A program made the position numbers and the translations under genes. Of a DNA stretch of 64,000 bases, positions 1,775 to 60,414 are shown one piece after another. Each line of letters opens with the position of its first letter. Position 1 is the first letter of the stretch. Origin of the DNA: Minisyncoccota bacterium (GTDB taxonomy: Bacteria > Patescibacteriota > Minisyncoccia > Phycocordibacterales > UBA9973); contig DAOQAL010000001.1 of assembly GCA_035353995.1 (NCBI GenBank), positions 70,867-134,866 on the forward strand, in the 5' to 3' direction. A model generated the notes under the pieces. That model ran no database searches. It was not told where the DNA came from and was given only the letters and a program-made list of their open reading frames with translations.

Positions 1775-2818
1775 TTATCTTGATGACCAGGACATTGGTG
1801 TCGCACCTCCAGGATTTTTTGCTCCATGAACTTCAAAGTGTATATGAGGACCTGTTGAATGACCAGTTGATCCAACATATCCTATTACTTGACCTTGAGA
1901 AACTTTTGAACCCATAGTTGTACCAAGTCTAGACATATGTGCATACAATGTCTGTGTTCCATTTGAATGTTGAATAATTACCATGTTTCCATAACCACCA
2001 TTGTATCCATTACGTGCAAATATAACTTTTCCTGAAGCAGAAGCAAGTATCTTTGTGCCAGTTGGTGCTGCTAAGTCAATACCATTTTTACCATGCAAGC
2101 CCTGACTTCTTCTTGAATAACCTGGAACAGGGTTAATAAAGTATCCGGCAACATTTTTAGTCGGTGTTTTTGTATAACTAGATTTTGTTTTTGGTTTTGA
2201 ACTTGAGCTTGAAGAGGTTGGTGTGCTCATTTCAGCATCAGGAATAATAAGTTCATTTCCAACTACTAATTGAGCATCTATAGAAATATCATTAAAGCCA
2301 GTTATATCAGAAACTTCTACTTGATATTTTGCAGCAATCTTTTTTAGAGTATCTCCTTTTGCAATAACATGTTTTACTCCATCTATAGGAAGAATAATCA
2401 AAACGTCACCTTCAGACAATTTATCACCCTTTTTCATATTATTTGCCCAAAGTATTGTATTTGCTGAGACTTTAAACATATCGGCTATTTGTCCAATAGA
2501 ATCACCTTTTCTAACAACATAAACACTTATTTCATCAAAAGATGCTTCTTCTTCTGTGCCGTCTGATACACCAGTAGGACTTGTATTTGGAACAAGAGCA
2601 TTATCAGATACTATATTTATATTAGTTGTATCAGTAGTTGAAGTGCTTTTTATATTGCTTTTTTCCTCTAAAACAGCCATTGAAGAAACACTTGCTTGCA
2701 GTAAATCCATGCTTTGAGAATTAATATTTGGGTCTATTTCTTGAGTATTTGTTGGGGTACTTGAACCAAATAGGCTAGCAAGTAAGTTAGCATTTGTATT
2801 CTTTGTAGGCACAAACAA
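1775..2818 (-). CDS. LysM-domain M23 family peptidoglycan endopeptidase
   Basis: Two LysM-like segments (GDSIGQIADMFKVSANTI, GDTLKKIAAKYQVEVSDI) plus an M23 catalytic region (HGKNGIDLAAP...GYVGSTGHSTGPHIHFEV). The listed start is TTG; there is no ATG anywhere upstream in frame. Confidence 0.85.
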   Translation of the reverse strand: MFVPTKNTNANLLASLFGSSTPTNTQEIDPNINSQSMDLLQASVSSMAVLEEKSNIKSTSTTDTTNINIVSDNALVPNTSPTGVSDGTEEEASFDEISVYVVRKGDSIGQIADMFKVSANTILWANNMKKGDKLSEGDVLIILPIDGVKHVIAKGDTLKKIAAKYQVEVSDITGFNDISIDAQLVVGNELIIPDAEMSTPTSSSSSSKPKTKSSYTKTPTKNVAGYFINPVPGYSRRSQGLHGKNGIDLAAPTGTKILASASGKVIFARNGYNGGYGNMVIIQHSNGTQTLYAHMSRLGTTMGSKVSQGQVIGYVGSTGHSTGPHIHFEVHGAKNPGGATPMSWSSR

Positions 2819-3216
2819 ACCACCCGCTAACAGGGAAAAGGTTAATAATGAGCTGAATATTTTATGTTGAGATTTAATAAAACAAACTAAATTATCGCAA
2901 GAATTCCTTTTCTACCCTTGGAAAATAAGGATAAAACACAAGACGACCAAAATGTACTACAAACAAAAGGTTCTTACGAAGGTTACAATCTTTTCGGCTT
3001 TCGGTCACAACTTACCCTACCTCTATTCAGTATATACACATAGTATCATACGAGGACGTTCAGTCAACCAATAGGTGGAAAACTTTGTTAATTGACACTT
3101 GATACTAAATATTTCCTAATATATATTTTAGTGGGGGAAAAAAATAAAAAATATCATAAAACAAAACCACCACAAAACAAAACCACTTAGAAGTATTTTT
3201 ATGTTAAGATTAACCG

Positions 3217-5172
3217 ATGGAAGAACACTTAAAAGGACTAAATAGTGCCCAAAGAGAAGCGGCAATCCACAAAAATGGACCTCTTCTTATTGTAGCTGGA
3301 GCTGGAGCCGGAAAAACAAAGACAATAACACATAGAATAGTGAATTTAATAAAAGAGGGCATTATGCCAGAAAAAATATTAGCTGTAACATTTACAAATA
3401 AAGCAGCAAAGGAAATGAAAGAAAGGGTTATTAAAGAAATAGAAAAAAATGCAAAAGAACAAAGTACTAGCCCATTTATATCAACATTCCACTCTTTAGG
3501 AGTCTATATAATAAAAGAAAATGCACAAATGTTAGGTCTTACGAAGCATTTTACTATTTTGGACGAAAACGATACTACTAGTTTAATAAAAGAGAGCATA
3601 AAAGAACTTGGTTTTGACCCAAAACAATACGATCCACGAAAAATAAAAAATATTATCAGCAGAGAAAAAGGAAAATTTACTAGATTACCTGAATATCAAG
3701 AAAAGGAAAATAATTCTTTTGGAAGAATTGTTGGACAAGTTTGGAGTCTTTATGAAAAGAAAAAAACAAAAGAGAATTCGCTTGATTTTGATGATTTACT
3801 TTTAAAAGCTGTAAAACTTTTAAAAGAAAATGAAGAAATAAAAAAGATTTACCAAAATAAATGGGAATATATTCATATTGATGAATATCAAGATACAAAT
3901 GAAGTGCAATATTTAATGTCACGTCTTCTTTCAGAAAAAAATAAAAATATTTGTGTAGTTGGGGATGCTGATCAAAATATTTATTCTTGGCGTGGAGCAA
4001 ATTTAAAAAATATTTTAAGTTTTGAAAAAGATTATCCTAATGCAAAAATAGTTCTACTTGAAGAAAATTATCGTTCTACTCAAAATATTCTAGAAGCTGC
4101 AAACGAGATAATTAAAAAAAATATTTATCGCCCAGAAAAAAACTTATTTACAAAAAATGAAGCTGGAGAAAAAATTTCTCTTTATGAAGCTATTGATGAA
4201 ACAGACGAAGCAGAATTTGTAGCAACAAAAGTTTTAGAAATTCTAGATCAAGTAGGAAACTTTCCTAATAAACCTGAAAAAGATTTTCCAGATATTGCAA
4301 TTTTATATCGCGCAAATTTCCAATCTAGAGCATTAGAAGAAGCAATGTTGCGATATACCATTCCATATCAAGTTCTTGGCATAAAATTTTTTGAAAGAAA
4401 AGAAATAAAAGATACTCTTGCATATCTTCGAGCTGCTCTTAACCCAGAGAGCTTGTCAGACATAAAAAGAATAATAAATTTTCCTACAAGAGGAATTGGA
4501 AAAGTAACTTTGTTAAAAATTTTCGCCGGACAAAAAGATAATTTGCCAGTAAAAATGAAAATCAAAATAGATAATTTTTATAAAACACTAGAAGAAATAG
4601 GAGAAAAAATAAAAAAAGAAAAAGCATCGGATATAATAAAATTTGTTGTAAAAAAATCAGGCATTGAAATGGAATTACAAAATGGAACTGCTGAAGACCT
4701 AGAAAGACTTGAAAATATAAAGGAATTAGCTACATTAGCAATTAAATATGATGGATTAGAAAATGGTGAAGGTATTGAAAAACTTTTAGAAGACGCATCA
4801 CTATCATCAGACCAAGATAGCTTGATGATTACAGAAAATAAAAAAGAAAACAAATCTGCAATAAAATTAATGACAGTACATGCATCGAAAGGATTAGAAT
4901 TTGAGTATGTATTTATTACTGGTTTAGAAGATGGGCTTTTTCCACACCAAAAAGAAAATAATAGCGAAGCAGAAGACAGAGAAGAAGAACGCAGGCTTTT
5001 CTATGTTGCACTTACTCGTGCAAAGAAAAAATTATTTTTATCTTTCGCAAACTATCGTACAATTTTTGGCTCACGACAAATAAATGCTCCATCTGAATTT
5101 ATAAACGACATACCAAAAGATTTAATAGAAAAGGGGGACGAGGACCCAAGAATAAAAACAATTTATATATGA
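3217..5172 (+). CDS. pcrA: UvrD/PcrA/Rep-type superfamily-1 DNA helicase
   Basis: Walker A AGAGAGKTKTITHR, DEYQDTN motif, VGDADQNIYSWRGA, and C-terminal helicase motifs (VALTRAKKKL). Confidence 0.85.
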   Translation: MEEHLKGLNSAQREAAIHKNGPLLIVAGAGAGKTKTITHRIVNLIKEGIMPEKILAVTFTNKAAKEMKERVIKEIEKNAKEQSTSPFISTFHSLGVYIIKENAQMLGLTKHFTILDENDTTSLIKESIKELGFDPKQYDPRKIKNIISREKGKFTRLPEYQEKENNSFGRIVGQVWSLYEKKKTKENSLDFDDLLLKAVKLLKENEEIKKIYQNKWEYIHIDEYQDTNEVQYLMSRLLSEKNKNICVVGDADQNIYSWRGANLKNILSFEKDYPNAKIVLLEENYRSTQNILEAANEIIKKNIYRPEKNLFTKNEAGEKISLYEAIDETDEAEFVATKVLEILDQVGNFPNKPEKDFPDIAILYRANFQSRALEEAMLRYTIPYQVLGIKFFERKEIKDTLAYLRAALNPESLSDIKRIINFPTRGIGKVTLLKIFAGQKDNLPVKMKIKIDNFYKTLEEIGEKIKKEKASDIIKFVVKKSGIEMELQNGTAEDLERLENIKELATLAIKYDGLENGEGIEKLLEDASLSSDQDSLMITENKKENKSAIKLMTVHASKGLEFEYVFITGLEDGLFPHQKENNSEAEDREEERRLFYVALTRAKKKLFLSFANYRTIFGSRQINAPSEFINDIPKDLIEKGDEDPRIKTIYI

Positions 5173-5969
5173 TACATAAAGCAAAAAAATCTTTGGGACA
5201 AAATTTTTTAAAGTCTGAAACAATTTTAAAAAAGGTTGTTGAGACGGGAGAAATATCTGAAAATGATATCGTTTTAGAAATTGGACCTGGTAAAGGAACT
5301 TTGACAAAAAAACTTTTGGAAAAAGCAAAAATCGTTATTGCAATAGAAAAAGATCGTGAACTTTTTTCTTTCTTGCAAGAAAAATTTAAAAGCGAAATCT
5401 CTGAAAAGAAATTAATTCTTATCGAGGACGACATTTTAAAATTTGAAGCAGATAAAATTTTTTCAGATTCATCACAAAAATTTTGTAATCCATTAAACTA
5501 CAAAATTATTGCAAATATTCCATACAATATTACTGGAGCAATTTTAAAAAAATTTTTGGAAAATAAAAATCAACCAAGCATGATGGTACTAATGGTACAG
5601 CATGAAGTAGCGAGAAGAATCGTCGCAAACGATGGGAAAGAAAGTATTCTTTCTATCTCTGTCAAAGCCTATGGCACACCAAAACTTATTACAAAAGTTC
5701 CAGCACGGTATTTTTCTCCAGCACCAAAAGTTGATTCAGCAATAATATTAATAAAAAATATTTCAAAAAACTTTTTTACAAAAAATAAGATAGGAGAAGA
5801 AAGATTTTGGGAATTAGTTCGTACTGGTTTTGCTCATAAAAGAAAAAAACTTTCATCAAATTTGAAAAAAAATTCTAAAATAGACTTAGAAAAACTAGGT
5901 AATAAAAGAGCCGAAAACTTATCACTAGAAGATTGGAAAAATTTAATTAATTCTAAAAACTTTAATTAG
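5169..5969 (+). CDS. ksgA: 16S rRNA (adenine1518/1519-N6)-dimethyltransferase KsgA/RsmA
   Basis: SLGQNFL, EIGPGKGTLT and NIPYNIT motifs. Overlaps the helicase stop by 4 nt. Confidence 0.9.
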   Translation: MIHKAKKSLGQNFLKSETILKKVVETGEISENDIVLEIGPGKGTLTKKLLEKAKIVIAIEKDRELFSFLQEKFKSEISEKKLILIEDDILKFEADKIFSDSSQKFCNPLNYKIIANIPYNITGAILKKFLENKNQPSMMVLMVQHEVARRIVANDGKESILSISVKAYGTPKLITKVPARYFSPAPKVDSAIILIKNISKNFFTKNKIGEERFWELVRTGFAHKRKKLSSNLKKNSKIDLEKLGNKRAENLSLEDWKNLINSKNFN

Positions 5970-6384
5970 TACCAAACATACCAATAGTACCTTTAGTAAT
6001 AGGAAGCTCTGTACAAGGATCTCCAGTTATTAAACATTCACCACCTTGTGAATATTTACCAAGAATTACAGATCCTCCAGGAATCCCTGTCCCTGCTCTC
6101 TTCTCTGAGGCAGAAGAATAGAGATATGTTCCACTATAATCTGACGGACCAGTAACAGTTACTTGATAGCCATCACTACAAGTACAAGACTGAGTTGATA
6201 CTATCCTACCGCCAAACATAGAAAGTTCAGCACTTGTAGCAAAAACAATAGAAAAAGTAAATATTACTGTAAAAATTAAAATTACTACTAAAAAAATTCC
6301 CAAAATTTTATTTTTAAAAATACTTTCCATAAAAATATTATAGCATAAAAAATAAATCAATGATAGAATACTAATATTATGCAC
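5962..6384 (-). CDS. Small membrane-anchored Cys-containing protein, divergent from the T4SS-like operon
   Basis: Hydrophobic N-terminus (ILGIFLVVILIFTVIFTFSIVFA) followed by about 90 aa containing 5 Cys. The true start is probably the internal MESIF. Confidence 0.4.
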   Translation of the reverse strand: MHNISILSLIYFLCYNIFMESIFKNKILGIFLVVILIFTVIFTFSIVFATSAELSMFGGRIVSTQSCTCSDGYQVTVTGPSDYSGTYLYSSASEKRAGTGIPGGSVILGKYSQGGECLITGDPCTELPITKGTIGMFGTN

Positions 6385-7320
6385 CTTGATGATAATTACA
6401 AAAAATATCTACCGAGTAAAAAGTTTGCTTATTCAATAGCTTCACTGCTTGCATGTGGTTTAATTGTTTTTTTAATTGCAAATTTACTTTCAAGTAAAAA
6501 TAGTTTTTTCTCTTCTAAAAAAGAAACCAAAATAAGTTTAGAAAACATGACAACAAATGAATTAATAACTCTTGATTCAGATGGAGACAGTATTCCAGAT
6601 TGGGAAGAAGCATTATGGGGAACAGATCCAAAAAATAAAAAAACATTTGATAATATTAATGACTCAGAATATATAGAAAATAAAAAAATAGAAAATGGTA
6701 TAAAACCATCCGAAGATGATGGAACTTTAACAGAAACTGATAAATTTGCTAGAGAATTTTTTGCTACTTATATGGCAATGAAAACAACTGGACAGATAGA
6801 TGATAAGGCTATTACTGAATTCTCAACAGCATTAGGGCAAAATATAGCTGAAAATTCTGTTATCGATGAATATTCAAAAGAAAATATACAAATTACAAAA
6901 AGTGATACAGCAGAAGACCAAAAAAGCTATTATATTAAAGCTGGAAGCCTATTTGAACAATATAAAGAAAAAGGAATAGGAGGTGAACTTCAAATAACTG
7001 CAGCTATAGCAAACTCTAGAGAATCTAGTGATATAGAAAAATCGGAAAATTATCTATTAGAAATTTCTAATGCATATCAAGAATTTGCAAAAAAATTGGT
7101 TAATGTACCAGTGCCAGAAAGTTTGACTGATTATCATCTTCAAATAATTAATAATGCAAACAATACAGGAATTTCTATTATTAATATGGCAAAAATTATT
7201 TCAGATCCAATTGTTGGAGTCTCTGGACTTTCTCAATATCAAAAATATAGTAATTCATTAGTAGAATCTGTGGAAAGTTTAGAGAGTTTTTTATCAAAAA
7301 ATGGTATAATACCCGAGTAG
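6379..7320 (+). CDS. Signal-anchored secreted protein with a thrombospondin-type-3-like Ca-binding motif; first gene of the T4SS-like operon
   Basis: N-terminal TM segment (FAYSIASLLACGLIVFLIANLL). DSDGDSIPDWEE at nt 6574-6609 matches a DxDxDGxxDxxE calcium-binding loop. Confidence 0.6.
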   Translation: MHLDDNYKKYLPSKKFAYSIASLLACGLIVFLIANLLSSKNSFFSSKKETKISLENMTTNELITLDSDGDSIPDWEEALWGTDPKNKKTFDNINDSEYIENKKIENGIKPSEDDGTLTETDKFAREFFATYMAMKTTGQIDDKAITEFSTALGQNIAENSVIDEYSKENIQITKSDTAEDQKSYYIKAGSLFEQYKEKGIGGELQITAAIANSRESSDIEKSENYLLEISNAYQEFAKKLVNVPVPESLTDYHLQIINNANNTGISIINMAKIISDPIVGVSGLSQYQKYSNSLVESVESLESFLSKNGIIPE

Positions 7321-7327
7321 TATATAT

Positions 7328-9796
7328 ATGAGAAAAACTTTTTCCAAAATAGTTTGCTCGATTGTAATGATAAGTATTATCATGATGTCTTTTGCGGGCA
7401 TTGAACCAAAAAAAGCTAAAGCTGAATCTATTGAAAATTATATTTCAAAATTATCTCCTATGATTGCTGAACTTCCAGGATGTTCGGATAAAATTTCTGG
7501 TTCTATATCTGGTCTTTTTTCAAAAGTAAAAGATATGGTAAATGGTAAAGAAAAAAACGATAAAACCGAACAAAGTGTTGAAGACCAAGTTAAATTTAAC
7601 GCAGGTGATTATGTTCCTGTTGTTGATGAAGAGAGTGTAGAAATGCTTAAAGACGTTAAAAAAACAACAGAAAGTACAGAAAAAAAGGTTTCTAGTTTGG
7701 AGACTAATAATACCTGTTTAAATGCAATAGGGAAAGCGGTAGCAAAAATTTTAGTTCAAGATATAACAGAAAGTGTTGTTAATTGGATCCAAACTGGAGA
7801 TTTTGGTGATCCATTGTTTATTCAAAATCCAAGTCAATATTTTGAAGATATAGCAAAAAATGAAATATTGGGTTTTGGTCAGGAGATAAGTGACCCAACA
7901 CTATATCCTTTTGGAAAAGCATTTATGCAAATTAAGGCAAATTCTTTTAAAAACAAATTCGCAAATAATGCAAAATATAGTTTAAATACATTAATGGAAG
8001 ATAGATATCCAGGGTTTACTTCAGAAAATTTTTATGCCGATTTTTCACAAGGAGGATGGGGAGCCTGGAATGCAATGGTTCAAAATCCTGCTAATAACCC
8101 ATTGGGTTTCGCTTTAATGGCTTCGGAAGAACTAGAAAAGAGAATTGAAGAAAAAACAAGTTTAGCAAAAGATTCTCTTCAGCAATCAGGTGGGTATTTA
8201 GGAGTTGAAAGATGCGCTAACCCAGAAGGAGTTTCAAAAGAAGAAGATGATAATTATAGAAATGGGGTAGAAGGAGCTCGTAAGTGTAAGAGCTGGGAGA
8301 CTGTTACACCAGGAAGATTAATTGGGGATGAATTAACAAATACATTCATGAAAAAAGATAATGCTTTAATGGATGTAGAAACGTTAAACGATGCTGTTGC
8401 TGCAATACTAGATGCAGTTTTGGATAAATTTGTAAGTTCTTTCCAAGAAGAAGGATTGGCAGATCTAAATATTGATAGTTATTACGAAACATATGACTTT
8501 GAAGGATTTGGCAGTTCTCAAAGTGACCAAGATTATACAGATGCACAAATAAATGCAAGCACATGGCTTAAACAACATCCAGATTTTGATATAAGAACAG
8601 ATTTAAACCAAGCTTTAATAGACGAGCAAAGAATATATTCTGATAAATTAGAAACTCAAAATAAAGAATTATATTCTACAGTAGAAAAATCTACTGAAAA
8701 TCCACTAGGAAATTATGGATTGGTTCCAACAATTTACCAATTAGACTATTGTATACCGGGCCCTCATACTGGCTGGAAGGAGGATACACAAGCAAGTCTT
8801 GAAACGATACAAGAAGAAATGGCAAATAAAAAATTTATAGATTACGAAGATGAATCATGGTTTGAAATTCTTAACTTAATTACACTTGGAGGTGCAAGTA
8901 TGGTAGCAGGGTATATTAATGATTATGCTTTTAAATGCGATGGCAGTACAGGCAGACAAGCAGCTCTTACATATATGAATCAATTTAATATTATGACTAC
9001 TGGTGGAGACAAATACTGGATTAAAAACAAGCAAAGTTCAAATCTTCCATTCTGTACTGTAAATGGTTTTATATCAGCAACTGACAAGGTTGAATCTGAT
9101 TATGAAAAATTAGTAGATACTTTTTATGCTACAAAATTTTTGCCTAGTGTAAGTAGTGAAGCTGAAACTTTATTTGAAAAAATTTCTGGTTATCATCAAA
9201 TAATGGAAGATAATAAATATACAATAGATACCTTAGCTGGGACGATAAGAAGATTAGAACAAATAAAAAAAGAAGTTGATGATATAAATAGCAAACTTGC
9301 TTCTGGAGAAATGGACCAAGACACATATAATGAAAATCTAAAAGTCTGGAAGGGCACTTTTGCAAGACTATCTTCTGGATTATATTCTGGGGACGATATA
9401 GCTAAAGCCGATAATGCAACAAAAGAAATAATAGATGAAAAAGATCATGTATATAACGACTTAATAAAGAGTGCAACTGGTTGCGAGCAAGAGGTAAAAC
9501 AAAATTTTCCTTCAGCTTATTCTTGGGAAATTTATTCTTCTTATAGACCAGATTATACAAAACCACACTTGTATGACTATCCAGACAGATTAGCCTCAGC
9601 TGGTGTTCCTATATCTAAAACAACAAAAGAAAAATCATTCGCACCGAATGTTGTAATTATGGATAGCGCAAGCACTACGTGCCCTACTAGCTATGCTATT
9701 GGCTGTATAGATATTACTGGTTTTGTGCAAACAAAAGATCCACATAAGGCTGAGAATGCAGGATATTATTGGGAACAAGCATTAGGAATATATTAA
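7328..9796 (+). CDS. Large secreted protein (822 aa), function unknown
   Basis: Cleavable-looking signal peptide (MRKTFSKIVCSIVMISIIMMSFAGIEPKKAKA). Long ORF, in-operon, with no recognisable catalytic motif. Confidence 0.65.
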   Translation: MRKTFSKIVCSIVMISIIMMSFAGIEPKKAKAESIENYISKLSPMIAELPGCSDKISGSISGLFSKVKDMVNGKEKNDKTEQSVEDQVKFNAGDYVPVVDEESVEMLKDVKKTTESTEKKVSSLETNNTCLNAIGKAVAKILVQDITESVVNWIQTGDFGDPLFIQNPSQYFEDIAKNEILGFGQEISDPTLYPFGKAFMQIKANSFKNKFANNAKYSLNTLMEDRYPGFTSENFYADFSQGGWGAWNAMVQNPANNPLGFALMASEELEKRIEEKTSLAKDSLQQSGGYLGVERCANPEGVSKEEDDNYRNGVEGARKCKSWETVTPGRLIGDELTNTFMKKDNALMDVETLNDAVAAILDAVLDKFVSSFQEEGLADLNIDSYYETYDFEGFGSSQSDQDYTDAQINASTWLKQHPDFDIRTDLNQALIDEQRIYSDKLETQNKELYSTVEKSTENPLGNYGLVPTIYQLDYCIPGPHTGWKEDTQASLETIQEEMANKKFIDYEDESWFEILNLITLGGASMVAGYINDYAFKCDGSTGRQAALTYMNQFNIMTTGGDKYWIKNKQSSNLPFCTVNGFISATDKVESDYEKLVDTFYATKFLPSVSSEAETLFEKISGYHQIMEDNKYTIDTLAGTIRRLEQIKKEVDDINSKLASGEMDQDTYNENLKVWKGTFARLSSGLYSGDDIAKADNATKEIIDEKDHVYNDLIKSATGCEQEVKQNFPSAYSWEIYSSYRPDYTKPHLYDYPDRLASAGVPISKTTKEKSFAPNVVIMDSASTTCPTSYAIGCIDITGFVQTKDPHKAENAGYYWEQALGIY

Positions 9797-9797
9797 A

Positions 9798-12200
9798 ATG
9801 AAAAAAACAAATCAAAAAATAAAAAAAATTATTTATAAATATTTAATCTTGTGTTTAGTTTTTGTTTTTGCTTTTTCTATTGCAGAAAACTCTTTTGCTT
9901 ATCCAACAGTTAATATAACTGCAAACCCTGATTCAGTTGTATATGAAGGAATATCAACTGTCACTTGGTCATCATCAGAAACTGATTATTGCATTTGGAG
10001 TGATGGCACAACAGCTAAAACTTCTGGTTCTTTTGTTACAGGTCCACTTAAATTTAATAATAATTATTATTCTCTTACATGTAAAAAAGGAAATTCATGT
10101 GTTGCATATTCTCCTGATAAAATTTTATATACATCTAAAAATGGCACAAGCTTGGGATTGGCAAAGAATTTTTGTTATTCAAAAACAACAGATGGAAAAG
10201 AAACATGCGAGTCAGCACAAGCAAGTTATGGATCGGATTTGGTAGAGAATGTTTGTTATTGGGGCAATACAGAAGCATCCAATTCAGTAATAATAACAAC
10301 AAGTCCAAAACAAACATCTGGTGGATCTATAACCAATACTTTAACAGGTGGTGCATCTGGTATAGAGGATACAAAAGCAACATTAAGTGGATCTTTAAAT
10401 CCTGGAGGTAATACATCTATCTCTGGGTATTTTAGATATTCTGCTGTAACACCACAAGACATAACACCTGTCTTTTGTAATGATATATACGGTTCAAATA
10501 TGAGATCAACAAAAGAAATAAATTTAAACGGAGCAGATAGTTCAACAACTTTTACAACCACTATTTCTGGTTTGGAAGAAAATACAACATACTACTACTG
10601 TGCTGTTGGTTCTGGCTATAATGAAATAACATATGGTGGAGTAAGATCATTCACAACAGGACTTTCTTCTTCATCATTCTCAGTAACAACAAATGATGCA
10701 CTAGTCGTAAATGATACATCTGCATATTTAAACGGATATTACAATACGGTTGTTTCTGCAAATACATATTTTGAGTACAGAAAAAAGTTTCAGGCAGTCC
10801 CTAATACATCAAATGCTTCTATTTCTAAAAACACTTCGTCAAGATTCTTAGGATATGTTAAAAATACTTTTAATAAATTATTACAAACAGATAAAGTGCT
10901 AGCTTCAACAAGTGACACTAAATTTTCGGACTGGATAAGAGTTGGAGACCAAAGTCACAACAGAAGCACTTATGGGAAAATGAGCACATTAGTAAGCGGA
11001 CTTTCTCCAAGCTCAACTTATCAATTTAGAGCTGTAATAGAAACAAGCAGTTCATCATCTACTTCCCAAATAAAATATGGAAATCTTTTATCTTTCACAA
11101 CAGCGAGCTCAGATACAACAACACCTGGCGATGTTCCTGGAGGAGAAGAATATAATGACCCATGTGCATCAATAGCAGACAGTGTTGATATAAATTGTAA
11201 TGGTACAGGAGGAGATGAAGAAAATGGGAAAATAACAGGATCTGGTATTGATCTTACTGTTGGTACAGTGACCCCAACAAATGTAACAAAAAATACATTA
11301 ACTCCATTTTATGCTTACGTAAAAAATCAAGGAGGGACATCAACTGGAAAAAATTTCTATGGTTTTTTCCAAATTTCAACTTACGATAGAACACCAGCTG
11401 ACACAGGAAGTAATAATAATATTAAAAATAAAAATCAAACAACACCAGCAAATTCTGCAGGAACACCAGTAAGTAAAATAGAAAAATTGTTAACAATAAA
11501 TAAAGCATTTGCCACATCAGGCAATTCCAATCCTGCAAATAATGCAACAGCAGTCAGCACGACTGTTACAGATGGTTCTCTAATAAATCTTCCAGCTGTT
11601 TCTATATCTACCTTGGGAGCAAAAAAATCAGTAAAAATATCAAGCTCATATGCTTTTGGTTCTTCTGGTACATATTATATGAGAGCTTGTGCTGATAAAA
11701 AAGACAATAAGGATATAGGATTGATAAAAGAATCGTATGAAAATAATAATTGTGGATCTTGGACAAAAATTATTGTTAAATCAGGTGGTGGAGGAAATAA
11801 TAATAGTAATGACGATACAGGCAGTCTTAGTCTTGGACAAATTGCTACACCTCCATCTGACGCAATCGTACGATACCATGAAGGAATTGAGCATGTATTT
11901 GCAAGACAAATAATTAATAATATAGAAATGGCAGAAGCTTATGGATATAAAGAAGGAGATAGTTTAGAAAAATTTGCCTGGAATTTTGCGGACTTACTTG
12001 CAAAAGATTTTGGTTATGTAGCACAAAATAGAAAAGAGATAAGGGTAAGTTTGCCAGATATTGCAGCATACCAGTTAAGAATGGAAGCAAGCGGACTAAC
12101 AGTATATGAATACTTTGATTCAAAAATTGTAAATATTCAAACGACAACAATGTCGTTGCGAGGTATTTATGATTATGAATATTATTTCAATAAAAGATAG
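9798..12200 (+). CDS. Large secreted Ser/Thr-rich protein (800 aa) with fibronectin-III-like modules
   Basis: Signal peptide (ILCLVFVFAFSIAENSFA). Repeated Fn3-like signatures (ISGLEENTTYYYCAV, VSGLSPSSTYQFRAV) and S/T/N-rich linkers. Confidence 0.65.
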   Translation: MKKTNQKIKKIIYKYLILCLVFVFAFSIAENSFAYPTVNITANPDSVVYEGISTVTWSSSETDYCIWSDGTTAKTSGSFVTGPLKFNNNYYSLTCKKGNSCVAYSPDKILYTSKNGTSLGLAKNFCYSKTTDGKETCESAQASYGSDLVENVCYWGNTEASNSVIITTSPKQTSGGSITNTLTGGASGIEDTKATLSGSLNPGGNTSISGYFRYSAVTPQDITPVFCNDIYGSNMRSTKEINLNGADSSTTFTTTISGLEENTTYYYCAVGSGYNEITYGGVRSFTTGLSSSSFSVTTNDALVVNDTSAYLNGYYNTVVSANTYFEYRKKFQAVPNTSNASISKNTSSRFLGYVKNTFNKLLQTDKVLASTSDTKFSDWIRVGDQSHNRSTYGKMSTLVSGLSPSSTYQFRAVIETSSSSSTSQIKYGNLLSFTTASSDTTTPGDVPGGEEYNDPCASIADSVDINCNGTGGDEENGKITGSGIDLTVGTVTPTNVTKNTLTPFYAYVKNQGGTSTGKNFYGFFQISTYDRTPADTGSNNNIKNKNQTTPANSAGTPVSKIEKLLTINKAFATSGNSNPANNATAVSTTVTDGSLINLPAVSISTLGAKKSVKISSSYAFGSSGTYYMRACADKKDNKDIGLIKESYENNNCGSWTKIIVKSGGGGNNNSNDDTGSLSLGQIATPPSDAIVRYHEGIEHVFARQIINNIEMAEAYGYKEGDSLEKFAWNFADLLAKDFGYVAQNRKEIRVSLPDIAAYQLRMEASGLTVYEYFDSKIVNIQTTTMSLRGIYDYEYYFNKR

Positions 12201-12227
12201 ATTTGAGATCGGTTTTAAAATTGAAGA

Positions 12228-14618
12228 ATGGAAATAATTAGAAAAAATAATTTAATAAAGAAAATATTAATACCATTTATTGCTTTGGCTATTTTCTTGA
12301 TGCCTATTAGCCCAAGTTTGAAAATCAATAATGGACATCTGGCAACAAAAATTACTGTAAATAGAGCTTATGCTGAGAGTATAGAAACTGCCACAAAAGA
12401 AATAGGAGAGACGAGTGCAAGTTTTAAAATAATTCTTTTAAACACAATAAATTTATCGGTATATAATACCCCATATAATGTAATAATAACTCTTTATCAG
12501 GGGAAAAGTGACGGAACAACTGAAAAAAATTATATAGAGACACAAAATTTTCCTTTTGAAGTTAACACTGAAAGACAAGAATTTGACGCAGTGTTTAAAA
12601 AACTAAACCCTGGTACTAGTTACTATTTTACAGCTACAGTATATCATACTATATCGGGTGACTCATCAATAAAAATTAGAGATTTTGATACCACGGGGAA
12701 TGGAGGTAGTGGCTTAAGCACTCAAAAAGATGCCTCCGAACTTGTAAATATTGATAATCAAGAATTGAACTTGGAATGTACTATTTGGGATGGCTGGGAA
12801 GGCATAGGAGGTTGCATAGCTAATTTATTTTATATGGTTTGGCAAGTTTCTGAATGGATTGCTAATTTAGCAGGTGGTTTTCTTGATTTTTTTGTTTACT
12901 ATTCAACAAATAGCAGTTCTTACGTTAGTGGTTTTATAACAGAGGGCTGGGGAGCAATACGAGATATTGCTAATATTTTCTTTATTGTTGCTTTATTGTA
13001 TGTTGCTATAAAAACAATATTAAGTTTAGGGGGGCAAGACACAAAAAAATTGATTGGATATATCGTTATTATGGCATTACTTATTAATTTCAGTTTATTT
13101 TTCACACGAGTAATTGTTGATGGATCAAATATTCTGGCGAAGGTATTTTACAACAATATAACACCAAAGAATAAAGACGGAAAAGTAATAACAGGAGATG
13201 AAGGAGAAAAATCTATTACAGTTGGATTAGTTGATAAATTTAATCCAGCAAGTCTTGTAACAAATTCGGTTTATCAAAGTGAAGGTATGACTCTAGGAAA
13301 GTTTATTTTTATAGTTCTCTTACTTACAGCAATTACTCTTTCTATGGCATATATGTTCTTTACGGTTGCAATTGTTTTTGTAAGCAGAACTGTAATGCTG
13401 TGGATTTCTATGATTTTTTCTCCGATTGCTTTTGCATCATACACCTTGCCTTTTAACATACCCGGAATGGGTCATAAGGATTGGTGGGATCAACTATTAA
13501 AAAATGCATTCCTAGCTCCAATTTTTGTATTTTTCTTATATATAATAGTGATGTTTACCAATTTCTTAAAAGAAATTACTTATGATCCAACCAATGATTC
13601 TTTTTTGGGAAGTTTAATGCATATAGTAATTCCTTTTATAATTCTCTTTATGTTGCTGATGAAGGCCAAAGAGATGGCAGTAAAATTATCTGGAGAAATG
13701 GGTAAGGCAATTACAAAAGGAGCCACTATGTTAGGAGGTGTTGCATTAGGCGCAGCTGCTGGCAGTGCAGCTTTTGCAATGCGTGGCACTTTGGGAAGAG
13801 TCGGAAATGCTCTTGGTAATGCGGAGTGGACTAAAAAAACTGGCAAATTTGGAAGAGGTATGCAAAACATTGGACACTCATTAGGTAAAGGAAGTTTTGA
13901 TGTAAGAGGAATAAAGGTTGCTGGAAAGAGCTTGGCAAGCACTGGTATTCCAGTTGGAACAACAAGTGGGACTGGAGGGTATGAAAAGATACGTGCCGAC
14001 AAGATAGAAAAGAGACAAAAGAGAGCAAAAGAACTTGAGGTTGGAGAAAATAGCGGAATGAAACAAGAACTAAACAAAACCGAAGCAGACCTACAGGGTC
14101 TCTTGGTCACGAACGCAAAAGAAATCGAAGATATCGACAAATTAATTGACAAGAAGAAACAAGAAGCCGCTGATGCAGAGAGGAAAATGAAAGGTCTTCC
14201 ACCTGGACAGGAACACGAAGATGCTCAAGCAGCCTTAAGAGCAGCAAACGATGAGGTACAAAATGCTAAAGACAGAAAAAAGAACTTCCGAGAAGGAAGA
14301 GCTCATACGGATCTCGATGGCACAGTACATGACTACGAGACATCAGCAGTCTTAAAAGACAAGAATGGAAATACTATACATAAAAAAGACGCAAATGGGA
14401 ACATAGAGTTGGACGCAAACGGAAGACCAATAGCTATGGGTATTGATGTGCTGGAAAAGCAACAAAAGACACAAGCACAGGGCATCAAGACCGAAAACGT
14501 AATAAGGAGAACCAAATATGCTAAGGCTAAAGGACACTGGTATAATGGTAAAGGAAGTAGAGAAGCAGCTCATAAGATAATAATGGAGACAAAATTAGAT
14601 AGTGGTACTAAAACATAA
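12228..14618 (+). CDS. VirB6/TrbL/ConG-like polytopic membrane protein with N-terminal Fn3-like ectodomain and long charged/Gly-rich C-terminal tail
   Basis: Signal/TM at the N-terminus; Fn3-like NPGTSYYFTATVYH; at least 6 hydrophobic helices between residues about 180-520; Gly-rich then KE-rich coiled-coil-like tail. Confidence 0.6.
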   Translation: MEIIRKNNLIKKILIPFIALAIFLMPISPSLKINNGHLATKITVNRAYAESIETATKEIGETSASFKIILLNTINLSVYNTPYNVIITLYQGKSDGTTEKNYIETQNFPFEVNTERQEFDAVFKKLNPGTSYYFTATVYHTISGDSSIKIRDFDTTGNGGSGLSTQKDASELVNIDNQELNLECTIWDGWEGIGGCIANLFYMVWQVSEWIANLAGGFLDFFVYYSTNSSSYVSGFITEGWGAIRDIANIFFIVALLYVAIKTILSLGGQDTKKLIGYIVIMALLINFSLFFTRVIVDGSNILAKVFYNNITPKNKDGKVITGDEGEKSITVGLVDKFNPASLVTNSVYQSEGMTLGKFIFIVLLLTAITLSMAYMFFTVAIVFVSRTVMLWISMIFSPIAFASYTLPFNIPGMGHKDWWDQLLKNAFLAPIFVFFLYIIVMFTNFLKEITYDPTNDSFLGSLMHIVIPFIILFMLLMKAKEMAVKLSGEMGKAITKGATMLGGVALGAAAGSAAFAMRGTLGRVGNALGNAEWTKKTGKFGRGMQNIGHSLGKGSFDVRGIKVAGKSLASTGIPVGTTSGTGGYEKIRADKIEKRQKRAKELEVGENSGMKQELNKTEADLQGLLVTNAKEIEDIDKLIDKKKQEAADAERKMKGLPPGQEHEDAQAALRAANDEVQNAKDRKKNFREGRAHTDLDGTVHDYETSAVLKDKNGNTIHKKDANGNIELDANGRPIAMGIDVLEKQQKTQAQGIKTENVIRRTKYAKAKGHWYNGKGSREAAHKIIMETKLDSGTKT

Positions 14619-14620
14619 AT

Positions 14621-15118
14621 ATGACCGAGAAATTAAAACAGACAATTAAAGAACAAATGGTAATTATGCCTAAGGAATCACAAGAAGTGGTAAATAATTT
14701 TGATTGGGTAAAAATTTCCGAGGAAATTGGCAAAAAATATCTATTAAGTGAAGAAGAAATTAATATTTTACAAGCGGAGATAGCAACAGTACTGGTATGT
14801 GCCGAAGATCAAGATTATCTTACTCAAGATATAGAAAACGAGGTTGGTACAAGCAAGACTGAAGCAGAAAAAATAGCAAGTGAAGTTTTAGAAAAAATTT
14901 TTAAGCCACTAATTGAGAATTTATCTAAAAAAATAAAATTGGAATTAAAAGATCGTCCGATTAATTGGCAACAAAATTTAGATTTTATTCTTTCGGGGGG
15001 AGACTATACTGCTTTTATAAGAAAACCAATAAAAGAAGAAGACAATGTTGCTCCACAAGGAAATACTTTTTCAAACTATTCTGATTTAGATGATTTAAAA
15101 AGTAAATTTACAATATAG
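14621..15118 (+). CDS. Soluble hypothetical protein, paralogous to the next gene
   Basis: 165 aa with no TM. Shares a roughly 55-aa motif with 15135-15848 (FDW...KKY.LSEEEINILQAEIATVLVCA vs VDW...KKGYSFEQLEDLEIETELLLCG). Confidence 0.5.
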   Translation: MTEKLKQTIKEQMVIMPKESQEVVNNFDWVKISEEIGKKYLLSEEEINILQAEIATVLVCAEDQDYLTQDIENEVGTSKTEAEKIASEVLEKIFKPLIENLSKKIKLELKDRPINWQQNLDFILSGGDYTAFIRKPIKEEDNVAPQGNTFSNYSDLDDLKSKFTI

Positions 15119-15134
15119 TGTATAATAAAATTAT

Positions 15135-15848
15135 ATGGATAAACCGATAGATTTATTACAAATAAAAATAGAGAGAGCTAAAGAGTCTTTACCAAAAGAA
15201 ACATTAAAGGCTATTAATTCTGTCGACTGGAGGGCTTTCATTCTTGCCCTACGAGAAAAAAAGGGGTACAGCTTTGAACAATTAGAGGATTTAGAGATTG
15301 AAACAGAACTTTTACTTTGTGGTCTTTTATCAATTGAAAATTATCCAAAAGAAATAGAGGAAAGATTAAAAATTCCAAAACCACAAGTTGATTTATTAAT
15401 TAATGAAATGAATGAATCAGTATTTAAAAAAATTAGAGAAGAATTAATAAAAAATACAGAAAAAGAAGAATTGTTTGTTAGAAAAGAAGAAAAAATAGAA
15501 CAAAAACAAGTAATACAAACAGGAATAGATCCAACAATAAATAAAAGCGAGTCGAATATACTAAATAAAGCGGGAATAAGTATAATTGAAAGAGCAGAAG
15601 AGATTGCCCCACCTTCTAATACAGAAGTAAAAAAGGAAAACCCAATCGAAAAGCCAGTAGAAAAGCCAGTGGAATCAATTCCGTCTCAAAAATTGGCTGG
15701 TTCATTTCAAATTCCAATGACAAAAACTGAATATTCATTAAACAATAAACAGAATGTACAAAAAAATTTAACAGCAGAAAAAGAACAAACAGAAAAAATA
15801 AAACTTTCTAAAATAGATCCATACAGATTAGACCCAAATGCTGAATAA
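15135..15848 (+). CDS. Soluble hypothetical protein, paralogous to the previous gene
   Basis: 237 aa. N-terminal domain related to 14621-15118; C-terminal low-complexity K/E/P-rich region (PIEKPVEKPVESIP). Confidence 0.5.
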   Translation: MDKPIDLLQIKIERAKESLPKETLKAINSVDWRAFILALREKKGYSFEQLEDLEIETELLLCGLLSIENYPKEIEERLKIPKPQVDLLINEMNESVFKKIREELIKNTEKEELFVRKEEKIEQKQVIQTGIDPTINKSESNILNKAGISIIERAEEIAPPSNTEVKKENPIEKPVEKPVESIPSQKLAGSFQIPMTKTEYSLNNKQNVQKNLTAEKEQTEKIKLSKIDPYRLDPNAE

Positions 15849-15878
15849 AAAAGGAAAGATAAAATAAAAATCAAAAAA

Positions 15879-16301
15879 ATGCAATTTAAGGTACCACAAT
15901 TTTTAGATATAGAAGATAAAATTTTTGGACCATTTACTTTCAGCCAATTTGTATATTTGGCTGGTGGAGCAGGGTTATGTTTTGTGCTATATAAATTATT
16001 AGGTTTTTTACTTGGTTTTATTCCAATACTAGCAGTTGCAGCATTTGCAGTAGCATTAACTTTTTACAAACCAAATGGCAAACCTTTCATAAATACAATA
16101 GAAGCTGGACTAAAATACATGACACAAAATAAATTATATATATGGAAAAGAAGAAAACAAAAAATCACTACAACAAATACAACAGAAACACAAAAGAAAG
16201 ATGATATCATAAACAATAGAAATACAAGATTAACAAATAGTAAGTTACAAGATTTAGCATGGAGTCTCGATGTATTAGATTCCAAAAAAGAAGATAAATA
16301 A
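15879..16301 (+). CDS. VirB3/ConD-like small two-TM protein
   Basis: 140 aa with two adjacent hydrophobic helices (FVYLAGGAGLCFVLYKLLGFLLGFIPILAVAAFAVALTFY). Sits immediately upstream of the VirB4-like ATPase, as in Gram-positive T4SS. Confidence 0.5.
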   Translation: MQFKVPQFLDIEDKIFGPFTFSQFVYLAGGAGLCFVLYKLLGFLLGFIPILAVAAFAVALTFYKPNGKPFINTIEAGLKYMTQNKLYIWKRRKQKITTTNTTETQKKDDIINNRNTRLTNSKLQDLAWSLDVLDSKKEDK

Positions 16302-16302
16302 A

Positions 16303-16938
16303 ATGGCATTAAAAGCAAAAGCAACTCAAGACTTTGTTCCGATAAAAGAGGTTCGAGATGGAATCATCATTTTAAAAGATGGTGGGTTGAGAGCTATCAT
16401 ATTAGCGAACTCTGTAAACCTTTCACTAAAATCAGCAGAAGAACAAAGAGCAACAATTATGCAATTTCAAAATTTTTTAAATACACTCGATTTTCCAATA
16501 CAAATTTCTGTTCAATCAAGAAGACTTGATATAAGACCTTATCTTTTATTGTTGGAAAATAGAATAAAAGTCCAAAATGAACCATTGTTAAAATTACAAA
16601 CAAAAGAATATATGGGGTTTATAAAAGATTTTACCGATTCTGTAAATATTATGACAAAAACATTTTTTATAGTAGTACCATATACACAAACTACAATAAG
16701 GGCTGATTCTGGTATATTTAAAGGATTATTCCAAACAAAAAATAAAGAAATGATAAAAAAAGAAGCCGAAATTGATTTCGAAGAAAAAAGATCACAATTG
16801 GAACAAAGAGTCAGTGTTATAGAGCAAGGTCTTTCACGTTGTGGCGTTAAGGCAGTACAATTAGAAACAGATCAAGTTGTAGAAGCATTTTATAAAGTAT
16901 TTAATCCAGGAGAACTTGAGGGAAAAATAGAAATTTAG
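16303..16938 (+). CDS. N-terminal segment of a split VirB4/ConE-like protein
   Basis: 211 aa with no TM. Same reading frame as the following ATPase ORF, separated only by TAG-AAG-ATT-ATG. Combined length of 826 aa matches full-length ConE/VirB4. Confidence 0.55.
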   Translation: MALKAKATQDFVPIKEVRDGIIILKDGGLRAIILANSVNLSLKSAEEQRATIMQFQNFLNTLDFPIQISVQSRRLDIRPYLLLLENRIKVQNEPLLKLQTKEYMGFIKDFTDSVNIMTKTFFIVVPYTQTTIRADSGIFKGLFQTKNKEMIKKEAEIDFEEKRSQLEQRVSVIEQGLSRCGVKAVQLETDQVVEAFYKVFNPGELEGKIEI

Positions 16939-16944
16939 AAGATT

Positions 16945-18792
16945 ATGTCAATATTTGATTCATTTTTTAATACAAAAAAGAAAAGCAATGAAAACCAAAC
17001 ACAAGTTGGAGCAAATCCTTCTGTTTTGGCAGTACTGCCAGAAGAAATATATGAGTCTGCAAAACTTGAATTGCAAGATGTCATTGCGCCTTCAGCATTA
17101 AGGATTGAGCCAAAATCAATTAACTTAGGAGATAAAATAGCAAGAACATTTTTCATAATTTCTTTTCCAAGATTTTTATCTGATAACTGGTTTTCACCAA
17201 TAATAAACCTAGATAAGGTTTTTGATGTTTCTATTTTTGTTCACCCAATAGATACATCTTTAGCATTAAGACAATTTCAGAAAAAAGTAGCTGAAGTACA
17301 AAGTCAAATAAGTGTCAGAGAAGCAAAAGGGATGGTTAGAGATCCAATGTTAGACACAGCACATGAAGACTTAGAAAGTCTAAGAAATAATTTGATACAA
17401 GCACAAGAAAAAATGTTTGATGTTGGTATATATATAACAATATATGCAGATAATGAACTAGAACTTTTTAAAATAGAAAATGAAATAAAATCTATACTTG
17501 AATCAAAATTAATTTATATAAAACCAGCTCTTTTCCAACAAAATGAAGGATTTAAGAGCGTTATACCAACAGGAACTGATCTTTTAGGCATACATCAAAA
17601 ACTAAATTCTGAGCCTCTTTCTAGTATTTTTCCTTTCATATCTTTCGACCTTACTTCCACTAAAGGAATTTTATATGGTGTTAACAGACACAATTCAAGT
17701 TTAGTAATATTTGATAGATTTTCATTGGAAAATTACAACTCTGTAACTTTTGCAAAATCTGGTTCTGGAAAATCTTATGCAACAAAATTAGAAATATTAA
17801 GATCATTGATGTTTGATGTAGATGTAATAGTTATAGACCCTGAAAGGGAATATGAATACTTAACTGAAGTAGTAGGTGGAAGATATTTTAATATTTCTCT
17901 TTCATCTGATCACCACATAAACCCTTTTGATCTTCCAATACCAAGAGAAGATGAGACAGCAGAGGACGTTCTACGTTCAAATATAATAAACTTAGTTGGA
18001 TTATTCAGACTAATGCTTGGAGGATTAACACCAGAAGAAGATTCTCTTGTTGATAGAGCAATTTCAGAAACATATGCAATGAAAGATATAACCCCAGATT
18101 CTGATTTTTCTAATATTGAACCACCTCTTCTTTCAGATTTTGAAATGATTCTTGCTGGTATGGATGGAAGTGAGTCTGTAATGCAAAGATTGGTAAAATA
18201 TACAAAAGGATCTTGGTCCACATTCTTAAATAAACCATCAAATGTTGATATTAATAAAAAATTCGTAGTATTTTCTGTCCGTGATATGGAAGATGAATTA
18301 AAACCAGTAGCTATGTATATAGTAATGCACTATATTTGGACAGCAGTAAGAAAAAATTTGAAGAAACGATTACTTGTAGTTGATGAGGCTTGGTGGATGA
18401 TGAAATCTGAAGATACTGCTTCTTTCTTGTATTCTATGGCAAAAAGAGGAAGAAAATACTATCTTGGACTTTCAACTATAACACAAGATGCTGCCGACTT
18501 TATGAAGTCTACTTATGGTGTACCAATAATAACTAACTCCTCAATACAAATACTTTTAAAACAGTCACCAACAACCATAGATGTGTTGCAAAAAACATTT
18601 AACCTTACAGATGAAGAAAAATACTTACTTTTGGAATCAGGAGTAGGGGAAGGTATATTCTTTGCGGGAATGAAACACGTTGCAATAAAAATAATAGCTT
18701 CTTACACAGAAGATCAGATTATAACATCAGACCCGTCACAAATATTGTCGATTAAAAAAGAAAAGGAAGAAATTGAGAAAACAAATGAATAG
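16945..18792 (+). CDS. virB4: VirB4/TrbE/ConE-family type IV secretion ATPase
   Basis: Walker A FAKSGSGKSYATK, Walker B LLVVDEAWWMM, and a conserved pre-Walker region (ARTFFIISFPRFLSDNWF...VSIFVHPID). Confidence 0.85.
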   Translation: MSIFDSFFNTKKKSNENQTQVGANPSVLAVLPEEIYESAKLELQDVIAPSALRIEPKSINLGDKIARTFFIISFPRFLSDNWFSPIINLDKVFDVSIFVHPIDTSLALRQFQKKVAEVQSQISVREAKGMVRDPMLDTAHEDLESLRNNLIQAQEKMFDVGIYITIYADNELELFKIENEIKSILESKLIYIKPALFQQNEGFKSVIPTGTDLLGIHQKLNSEPLSSIFPFISFDLTSTKGILYGVNRHNSSLVIFDRFSLENYNSVTFAKSGSGKSYATKLEILRSLMFDVDVIVIDPEREYEYLTEVVGGRYFNISLSSDHHINPFDLPIPREDETAEDVLRSNIINLVGLFRLMLGGLTPEEDSLVDRAISETYAMKDITPDSDFSNIEPPLLSDFEMILAGMDGSESVMQRLVKYTKGSWSTFLNKPSNVDINKKFVVFSVRDMEDELKPVAMYIVMHYIWTAVRKNLKKRLLVVDEAWWMMKSEDTASFLYSMAKRGRKYYLGLSTITQDAADFMKSTYGVPIITNSSIQILLKQSPTTIDVLQKTFNLTDEEKYLLLESGVGEGIFFAGMKHVAIKIIASYTEDQIITSDPSQILSIKKEKEEIEKTNE

Positions 18793-18837
18793 TTTTCAAC
18801 CTGGCATCTATTACAAAATAAATGATATAATAAAAGT

Positions 18838-21070: not shown

Positions 21071-21074
21071 AAAT

Positions 21075-58215: not shown

Positions 58216-58288
58216 GCGCGGTTAGCTCAGTTGGTAGAGCAACCCGTTTACACCGGGAAGGTCGGGGGTTCGAGTCCCTCACCGCGCA
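58216..58288 (+). tRNA. tRNA-Val (anticodon TAC)
   Basis: Acceptor GCGCGGT/ACCGCGC. Anticodon loop TTTACAC. T-arm GGGGG-TTCGAGT-CCCTC. Confidence 0.85.
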
Positions 58289-58303
58289 CAAAGGCATTTA
58301 TAT

Positions 58304-58375
58304 GCCCTCGTAGTTCAATGGATAGAACAGAGCTCTTCTAAGGCTTTGATGTAGGTTCGATTCCTACCGAGGGCA
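58304..58375 (+). tRNA. tRNA-Arg (anticodon TCT)
   Basis: Acceptor GCCCTCG/CGAGGGC. Anticodon loop CTTCTAA. T-arm GTAGG-TTCGATT-CCTAC. Confidence 0.85.
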
Positions 58376-58460
58376 CAGAACTGAAAGTTTTGTGAGTCCG
58401 CAGCGCGACGGCGCGAGGAGCGGGTTGAGAAATTTTTCAGCAGAAAAATATTTGTAACCA

Positions 58461-60330: not shown

Positions 60331-60414
60331 GCCCAGGTGGCGAAACTGGTAGACGTACTACCTTGAGGTGGTAGCGCCCGCAAGGGCATGGGAGTTCAAA
60401 TCTCCCCCTGGGCA
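60331..60414 (+). tRNA. tRNA-Leu (anticodon GAG), long variable arm
   Basis: Acceptor GCCCAGG/CCTGGGC. Anticodon stem CTACC/GGTAG, loop TTGAGGT. T-arm GGGAG-TTCAAAT-CTCCC. Confidence 0.85.

Follow-up and report, generated by a model that had tools for sequence, protein, structure and literature searches.

Patescibacteria carry chromosomal type IV secretion systems (T4SSs) that resemble the MPF-FATA class (MPF, mating pair formation), and their description includes the position near rsmA/ksgA (Quinonero-Coronel et al., 2025; PMC12102498). The published inventories cover the core (membrane proteins and ATPase) as well as the pilins, with no adhesin and no outer structure; no adhesin has been recognised in these systems, VirB8 is usually missing, and unmatched genes were left grey in the published maps (PMC12102498). 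Furthermore, the loci are usually devoid of a coupling protein and a relaxase (PMC12102498; PMC12857230). Southlakia, the one species in which this was tested, cannot grow as an epibiont without its T4SS (Wang et al., 2023; PMC10633639). Here, we report on a stretch of 64,000 nucleotides (the window) from a Minisyncoccota bacterium (assembly GCA_035353995.1, contig DAOQAL010000001.1), in which two adjacent genes, called A and B in the following, are situated inside a T4SS operon. We lean towards the view that both proteins are extracytoplasmic accessory components of the T4SS of Paceibacteria, with A as a structural part near VirB6 and B docked by its C-terminal domain.

Two better known systems are close enough for comparison. 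In pCF10, PrgB (aggregation substance) and PrgC are Sec-exported, repeat-containing surface proteins, which are encoded in the same operon as a channel of the VirB4/VirB6/PrgI type and act in cell-cell contact. In the Ptl system, pertussis toxin is exported by Sec and then released via a T4SS without a coupling protein.

Judged by its gene content, the locus studied here is a chromosomal, conjugation-derived (MPF-FATA-like) T4SS of Paceibacteria. It has the monoderm VirB4, the separate TrsD, PrgI/VirB3, a VirB6-like protein, a VirB2-like pilin and the rsmA/ksgA neighbourhood in common with the systems of other Patescibacteria, and its operon likewise contains no relaxase or coupling protein. 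The difference lies in A and B, for which the published inventories name no counterpart. Compared to PrgB and PrgC, B appears to follow the same logic, i.e. variable outer modules on a conserved base, but this is an analogy: B shares neither sequence nor domain similarity nor an LPXTG motif with them and carries a novel globular C-terminal domain instead. The middle part of B is built of modules that are also found in generic Fn3, CARDB and Big surface proteins, whereas its C-terminal domain and its constant placement within a T4SS locus are restricted to Paceibacteria. Exported helical subunits of the VirB5 type resemble A at most by analogy.

Two exported proteins encoded side by side

The sequence-only reading of the window had pointed to two adjacent open reading frames (ORFs) of approximately 800 amino acids, and their coordinates as well as the gap of one nucleotide proved exact. 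The two ORFs and their export signals are:

7328-9796, plus strand: ORF A, 822 amino acids, Sec-exported, nearly all alpha-helical protein of an orphan family
7328-7423, plus strand: signal peptide of A, residues 1-32, predicted cleavage between AKA and E
9798-12200, plus strand: ORF B, 800 amino acids, modular surface protein with Sec signal
9798-9899, plus strand: signal peptide of B, residues 1-34, predicted (by inspection) to be cleaved between SFA and Y

A single base separates the stop codon of A (TAA, 9794-9796) from the ATG of B. The motifs quoted in the earlier reading could be located, with FSQGGWGAWNAMVQNPANNPLGFALM at residue 239 of A and ISGLEENTTYYYCAV and VSGLSPSSTYQFRAV at residues 256 and 399 of B. 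The signal peptides it had proposed were called here by inspection and hydropathy, and the n/h/c layout of the Sec type is indeed present at both N-termini (MRKTFSK-IVCSIVMISIIMMSFAG-..AKA followed by E in A; MKKTNQKIKK..-YLILCLVFVFAFSI-AENSFA followed by Y in B). Each protein possesses one hydrophobic segment, which is N-terminal, preceded by Lys/Arg and followed by a small-x-small cleavage site, and no second membrane-grade segment. In an alignment of 112 A homologues, Ala32 of the AxA site (consensus KAxAQ) is conserved to at least 90%. An alternative gene call places the start of A 19 codons downstream (P0001, 803 amino acids), but the 822-residue start with subsequent signal cleavage is favoured, because the N-terminus is conserved across the 112 homologues. 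Moreover, mature A and mature B contain 10 and 12 Cys residues, respectively, whereas the proteins of this operon that stay in the cytoplasm have 0-1. The earlier mention of many paired Cys in A holds for their number, but only six of the ten are invariant in the family (C52, C130, C296, C320, C475 and C719 in the 112-homologue alignment). Hence, the signal peptides, the conserved AxA site and the contrast in Cys content allow A and B to be read from their sequences as real exported proteins, and the large homologue sets found for each speak against chance ORFs.

Distribution and conserved gene order

The synteny sample consisted of 81 loci from species-representative genomes and metagenomes, among which the gene order is near-invariant: uvrD-rsmA-(small gene)-p313-A-B-VirB6-(p165)-p237-PrgI-TrsD-VirB4-p321. 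VirB4 was detected downstream in 44 of the 81 loci. Of the 18 loci that cover 12.5 kb or more from the start of A onwards, 17 contain it; in the remaining one, B is so long that the sequence stops at PrgI. None of the sufficiently long loci was devoid of the T4SS core. Co-occurrence with VirB4 in relatives, which the sequence-only reading had suggested looking at, is therefore near-universal, and the order is also kept in distant lineages, where A adjoins VirB6 and B is missing.

More than 266 homologues of A, all unnamed, were obtained with a word index, and a profile search resulted in 4548 cluster representatives at E≤1e-3, of which 781 reach E≤1e-30, the weak tail of this list possibly holding low-complexity matches. 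In all 83 sequences with a match (window and related loci), A is present in one copy per locus, and neither the loci nor the 64-kb window contain a paralogue. No tblastn match was found among 72,556 plasmids and 50,697 phage records; therefore, A cannot be recognised as belonging to classical conjugative elements. For B, 73 homologues were found, and a deposited hypothetical protein from a metagenome-assembled genome of Candidatus Paceibacterota is identical to it (100%). B is confined to one sub-clade and A is widely conserved; according to these sequence comparisons, A is the older and broader component.

Measured as median identity to their counterparts in the window, cytoplasmic proteins of the system are better conserved than exposed ones, as expected if A and B are exposed components. 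The median amounts to 87% for VirB4, 74% for TrsD, 64% for PrgI, 55% for the C-terminal domain of B, 47% for p313, 43% for VirB6, 39% for A, and 36% over 39% of its length for the N-terminal part of B. Homology to wall or S-layer proteins independent of a T4SS, which the earlier reading had named as evidence against itself, did not appear: A and B show no homology to S-layer, SLH or wall proteins, no copies away from T4SS genes exist in the loci examined, and SLH, LysM, CWB and S-layer domains were not found in either protein with Pfam and NCBIfam.

Protein A, an all-helical orphan

Two parts of A deserve separate mention:

8042-8119, plus strand: most conserved motif of A, residues 239-264, DFSQGGWxAWxAMxQxPANNPLGF, with G242, G243, W244, N256, N257 and G260 invariant
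8855-8932, plus strand: remnant of a glycine-zipper hairpin, residues ~510-535, WFEILNLITLGGASMVAGYI

As far as can be judged from sequence and model comparisons, A founds a large, unnamed, single-copy family with no known family or specific fold match. It belongs to no Pfam, NCBIfam or PHROGs family and gave noise-level coiled-coil matches only; the profile search of the family against PDB sequences was empty at E≤10, and the comparison of its model with the PDB by Foldseek yielded no match with E<0.06. Alpha-pore-forming toxins were among the non-significant helical fold matches (E>0.5). The AlphaFold2 model, which was calculated from the 112-sequence alignment, is nearly all-helical, with a predicted local distance difference test (pLDDT) score of 71 and a predicted template modelling (pTM) score of 0.55. 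It contains very confident helical domains at residues ~398-500 and 578-720 and a 56-residue helix (residues 101-156); over the most conserved block (residues 230-257) the confidence is below 50. Since this block is conserved yet modelled with such low confidence, the model suggests that it may act as an interface or adopt an induced structure. The sequence-only reading had considered both proteins as adhesins, pilus-tip or sheath components, or substrates of the apparatus. For A, nothing identifies any of these roles, and the reading of either protein as a filament found no support. Tests of A by sequence and fold gave no support for a minor pilin of the VirB5/TrbJ/TraC type.

In most A homologues, the central part (corresponding to the region of residues ~500-560 in the window) forms a glycine-zipper/hydrophobic hairpin of 40-50 residues. 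At least one hydrophobic segment is present in 73 of the 112 homologues, at least two in 52, and the small-xxx-small zipper pattern in 78; in the homologue P0044, Pfam Gly-zipper_Omp is above threshold (29.8 bits compared to 25). The hairpin is thus found in approximately two thirds of the family and is lost or degenerate in the window clade, with only a weak remnant in A of the window (maximal hydropathy 1.39, no membrane-grade segment) and a similar state in its closest relatives. This pattern of presence and loss implies two modes of attachment within the family.

Two A homologues of approximately 1200 amino acids from distant lineages (P0282 and P0311) contain a Bact_surface_Ig-like domain in their C-terminal third (61-65 bits compared to a threshold of 27). 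In their loci VirB6 follows directly after the A homologue, and B is missing, as it is in further distant lineages. Because these Ig-fused A homologues come without a B gene, their sequences indicate that an Ig-type module is supplied either inside A or by a separate B, and that A is surface-exposed.

Protein B, variable modules on a conserved C-terminal domain

Following its signal peptide, B consists of:

9900-10307, plus strand: Cys-rich N-terminal region, residues 35-170, 6 Cys, no Pfam match
10344-11102, plus strand: two Fn3-like modules, residues ~183-287 and ~290-435, below threshold
11205-11762, plus strand: CARDB (Ig-like) domain, residues ~470-655, PF07705 with 31 bits compared to 22.7
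11826-12197, plus strand: conserved C-terminal domain, residues 677-800, approximately 125 amino acids, fold without a relative

N-termini similar to that of B are present in some of its homologues. The Fn3 repeats claimed in the earlier reading are only partly confirmed. In B of the window they stay below the Pfam thresholds (Pur_ac_phosph_N 26.9 bits compared to 30, fn3 15.7 compared to 25, PhoD_N also sub-threshold), but homologous Fn3-like repeats pass in P0122 (33.3 bits) and P0141 (97 bits). The CARDB domain is matched in two stretches around a low-complexity insert, and a linker rich in G/N/S/T connects it with the C-terminal domain.

The C-terminal domain forms the very end of 59 proteins, which are 455-1323 amino acids long, with 44-73% identity (median 55% at 87% coverage), while the modules before it vary in number and kind. 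In its tail, YEYYF, Y134 and Y136 are invariant, and E135 and Y137 are conserved to at least 90%. The Fn3 repeats of B align with Fn3 arrays of unrelated bacteria outside the candidate phyla radiation (CPR), but the C-terminal domain is not shared with these. When used alone as word-index query, this domain retrieved 7 fragments only. Against PDB sequences nothing significant was found (the best match, to an agmatine deiminase, covers 43 residues with an E of 0.005). This domain is the part of B that was modelled, and its fold has no relative among the structures searched. A test of the domain for a VirB8 or NTF2-like fold was negative, and a second copy is missing from the 64-kb window. Neither A (ending ...QALGIY) nor B (ending ...YDYEYYFNKR) has an LPXTG motif or a C-terminal transmembrane segment. 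The proposal of an adhesin fits the architecture of B, in which the C-terminal domain is conserved and the Fn3-like and CARDB modules before it have been shuffled among species, but B cannot be placed in the PrgB group: the test for a PrgB, antigen I/II or LPXTG adhesin gave no Pfam or NCBIfam match and no LPXTG motif.

A divergent form of the C-terminal domain (E down to 1e-26) was also observed inside a large unannotated protein of 740-1236 amino acids, encoded upstream of DUF5663-uvrD in 13 loci (L001 at 2781-5048, L012 at 1816-5469, L013 at 1868-5461 and 10 further); the gene is missing at the matching place of the window. Hence, this neighbourhood encodes a second protein that makes use of the domain.

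The surrounding operon

That A and B share an operon with a VirB4/VirB6 core, as the earlier reading had stated, could be verified. Downstream of uvrD and rsmA, 12 genes on the plus strand form a tight operon (6379-22418) with gaps of at most 45 nucleotides or overlaps. Besides A and B it comprises:

6379-7320, plus strand: p313, 313 amino acids, first gene of the operon, N-terminal membrane anchor and thrombospondin-type-3-like DxDxD motif
12228-14618, plus strand: VirB6-like protein, 796 amino acids, 7 hydrophobic segments, N-terminal Fn3-like ectodomain
14621-15118 and 15135-15848, plus strand: two small proteins between the VirB6-like gene and PrgI
15879-16301, plus strand: PrgI/VirB3-like protein, Pfam PF12666 with 36.3 bits compared to a cut-off of 27
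16303-16938, plus strand: TrsD/TraC-like protein, a stand-alone piece like the VirB4 N-terminus, matching NCBIfam TrsD and the N-terminal parts of VirB4 models
16945-18792, plus strand: VirB4 ATPase of the CD1110/MPF-FATA type, NCBIfam NF045971 with 365.9 bits compared to 325
18838-19803, plus strand: exported protein, 321 amino acids
19790-21070, plus strand: VirB2-like pilin fusion with signal peptide, T4SS pilin domain (PF18895, 27.2 bits compared to 26.6) and Cys-rich C-terminal domain
21075-22418, plus strand: anchored protein, 447 amino acids

The gene for p313 is found immediately 5' of A in 71 loci. Because of this constant position, p313 probably joins A and B as the third component of one extracellular module. 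The calcium-binding, thrombospondin-type-3-like motif after its anchor reads DSDGDSIPDWEE.

The assignment of the VirB6-like protein rests on its 7 hydrophobic segments and conserved position, and the sequence support is weak (MMCAP2_0566, 18.5 bits compared to a cut-off of 90; a faint TrbL_3 match in homologues). It has its own signal-anchor, an Fn3-like ectodomain at residues ~55-140 (sub-threshold in Pfam) N-terminal to the polytopic region, and a charged, Lys/Glu-rich C-terminal tail of approximately 300 residues. The VirB4 protein matches the Pfam TraG P-loop (PF19044, 86 bits). Its function is split in the window, with a 211-residue TrsD-like protein directly before the 615-residue VirB4, an arrangement already reported as typical for Patescibacteria.

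The C-terminal domain of the pilin fusion varies by lineage, with SLT, SLT_2 or YkuD in relatives (L003/L004, L082, L084, L085) and an unmatched Cys-rich domain in the window. By these domains, the fusion looks like a pilin-anchored cell-wall enzyme in place of VirB1. For the window version of the domain (20600-21067), no Pfam family was found and the best PDB match had an E of 0.85; the impression of an HxH metallopeptidase motif there has no support. Scans of the operon for promoters and terminators gave no excess over the shuffled expectation.

Between rsmA and p313, the window contains a 140-codon ORF on the minus strand (5962-6384; its start is probably an internal Met) for a small, Cys-rich, membrane-anchored protein. 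It is antisense to the operon, and its two ends overlap the adjacent genes by a few bases. In 6 other loci, a homologue is located at the corresponding position, on the plus strand in L005, L043, L065 and L072 and on the minus strand in L010 and L034, and no convincing inverted repeats flank the gene. Furthermore, ARAGORN found ten tRNA genes in the 64-kb window, including clusters for Arg-Pro-Gly (24-970) and Val-Arg (58216-58376); Rfam misses the tRNA-Leu at 60331-60415.

Possible functions of A and B

If A and B are accessory components of the T4SS, as we are inclined to assume, A would be a structural subunit outside the membrane, e.g. a stalk, a cell-wall-spanning part or a piece of the pilus base or tip beside the VirB6 ectodomain. 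In most species, A would be held in or inserted into a membrane by its central glycine-zipper hairpin, and contacts with proteins would take over this task in the window species. B could dock on A, VirB6 or p313 via its conserved C-terminal domain and the aromatic YEYYF tail. Its Ig-like, Fn3-like and CARDB modules, an array that evolves fast, would then point outward and serve as an adhesin or spacer towards the host, with a specificity that shifts from host to host.

Several points weigh against this assumption. Synteny is weak evidence here, since two housekeeping genes, uvrD and rsmA, keep their place relative to virB4 as rigidly as A and B do. Judged from the published structure-based annotation table, the T4SS locus of Southlakia contains no evident equivalent of A or B; the pair may therefore not be universal among the T4SSs of Patescibacteria. 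Moreover, the model of A is of medium quality only, and the docking of B is inferred from conservation and position, because its C-terminal fold has no relative. More generally, we infer the physical tie of both proteins to the T4SS, and likewise their function.

A bolder version, which we regard as possible but unlikely, would make A a new class of outer T4SS components in ultra-small monoderm epibionts. Here, A would oligomerise on the VirB6 ectodomain and form a conduit or translocon into the host envelope by means of its glycine-zipper hairpin or the GGW/NNPLGF block, an exchangeable host recognition would be given by B or by an Ig domain fused to A, and the pair would represent the host-contact end of the Patescibacteria T4SS.

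Alternatively, A and/or B might be cargo, i.e. exported by Sec, then released or presented by the T4SS in a two-step manner as in Ptl, and acting on the host cell, which appears rather unlikely to us. In that case, A could be a membrane-inserting translocator or toxin that uses the glycine-zipper hairpin, and B a host-binding effector. The Sec signal peptides on both proteins, the usual lack of a coupling protein and relaxase in the Patescibacteria loci as in Ptl, the hydrophobic hairpin in most A homologues and the alpha-pore-forming toxins among the fold matches of A are consistent with such a role, and Sec-dependent export is combined here with a T4SS without coupling protein as for pertussis toxin. 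Effectors are usually variable, multi-copy and dispersed. A, in contrast, is single-copy, changes its architecture slowly and is fixed in position between p313 and VirB6. A transmembrane-grade hairpin is missing in 39 of the 112 sequences (A of the window and 38 other homologues), and the toxin fold matches are not significant. B with its conserved C-terminal domain and variable outer modules resembles an anchored adhesin rather than a released effector. A and B have no similarity to the pertussis toxin subunits and show the conservation pattern of machine parts.

It is also conceivable, albeit improbable, that A and B are general envelope proteins serving in a surface layer, in wall organisation or in other adhesion, which stand beside the T4SS by frozen gene order only. 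The equally rigid synteny of uvrD and rsmA, which are unrelated to secretion, would be compatible with this explanation, as would the Fn3 and CARDB modules, which are generic surface domains and also occur in non-CPR bacteria without a T4SS. However, A and B are situated inside the co-directional operon between p313 and VirB6, with gaps of 1-27 nucleotides; they lack SLH, S-layer and wall-binding domains, no copy of A was found outside this position in the loci examined and the 64-kb window, and the non-CPR proteins share only the Fn3 repeats with B, not the C-terminal domain.

Finally, that A is a divergent wall-remodelling enzyme, which opens the wall for the channel as an analogue of VirB1, is highly improbable: it would fit that A is an exported, all-alpha protein, that the VirB1-like proteins of monoderms are large, and that the most conserved block of A contains invariant acidic and aromatic residues (E268, GGW, NNPLG), but A matches no lysozyme, SLT, CHAP, NlpC/P60 or M23 model or structure, and this role is apparently filled by the pilin-fusion gene 3' of VirB4, which in relatives encodes SLT, SLT_2 or YkuD domains, as well as by an M23/LysM protein encoded upstream.

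Significance

A and B are undescribed, lineage-specific extracellular additions to the known MPF-FATA-like T4SS of Patescibacteria, because the published surveys report no adhesin and leave the unmatched neighbours of virB4 unlabelled, and the Southlakia table shows no evident equivalent. Should they prove to be unrelated envelope proteins, the finding would shrink to two further families of hypothetical proteins. As accessory components of the T4SS, they are concrete candidates for its outward-facing, host-contact part in the largest class of Patescibacteria, because they are large, exported, conserved in position and without known folds. The reshuffled outer modules of B would then offer a handle on host specificity.

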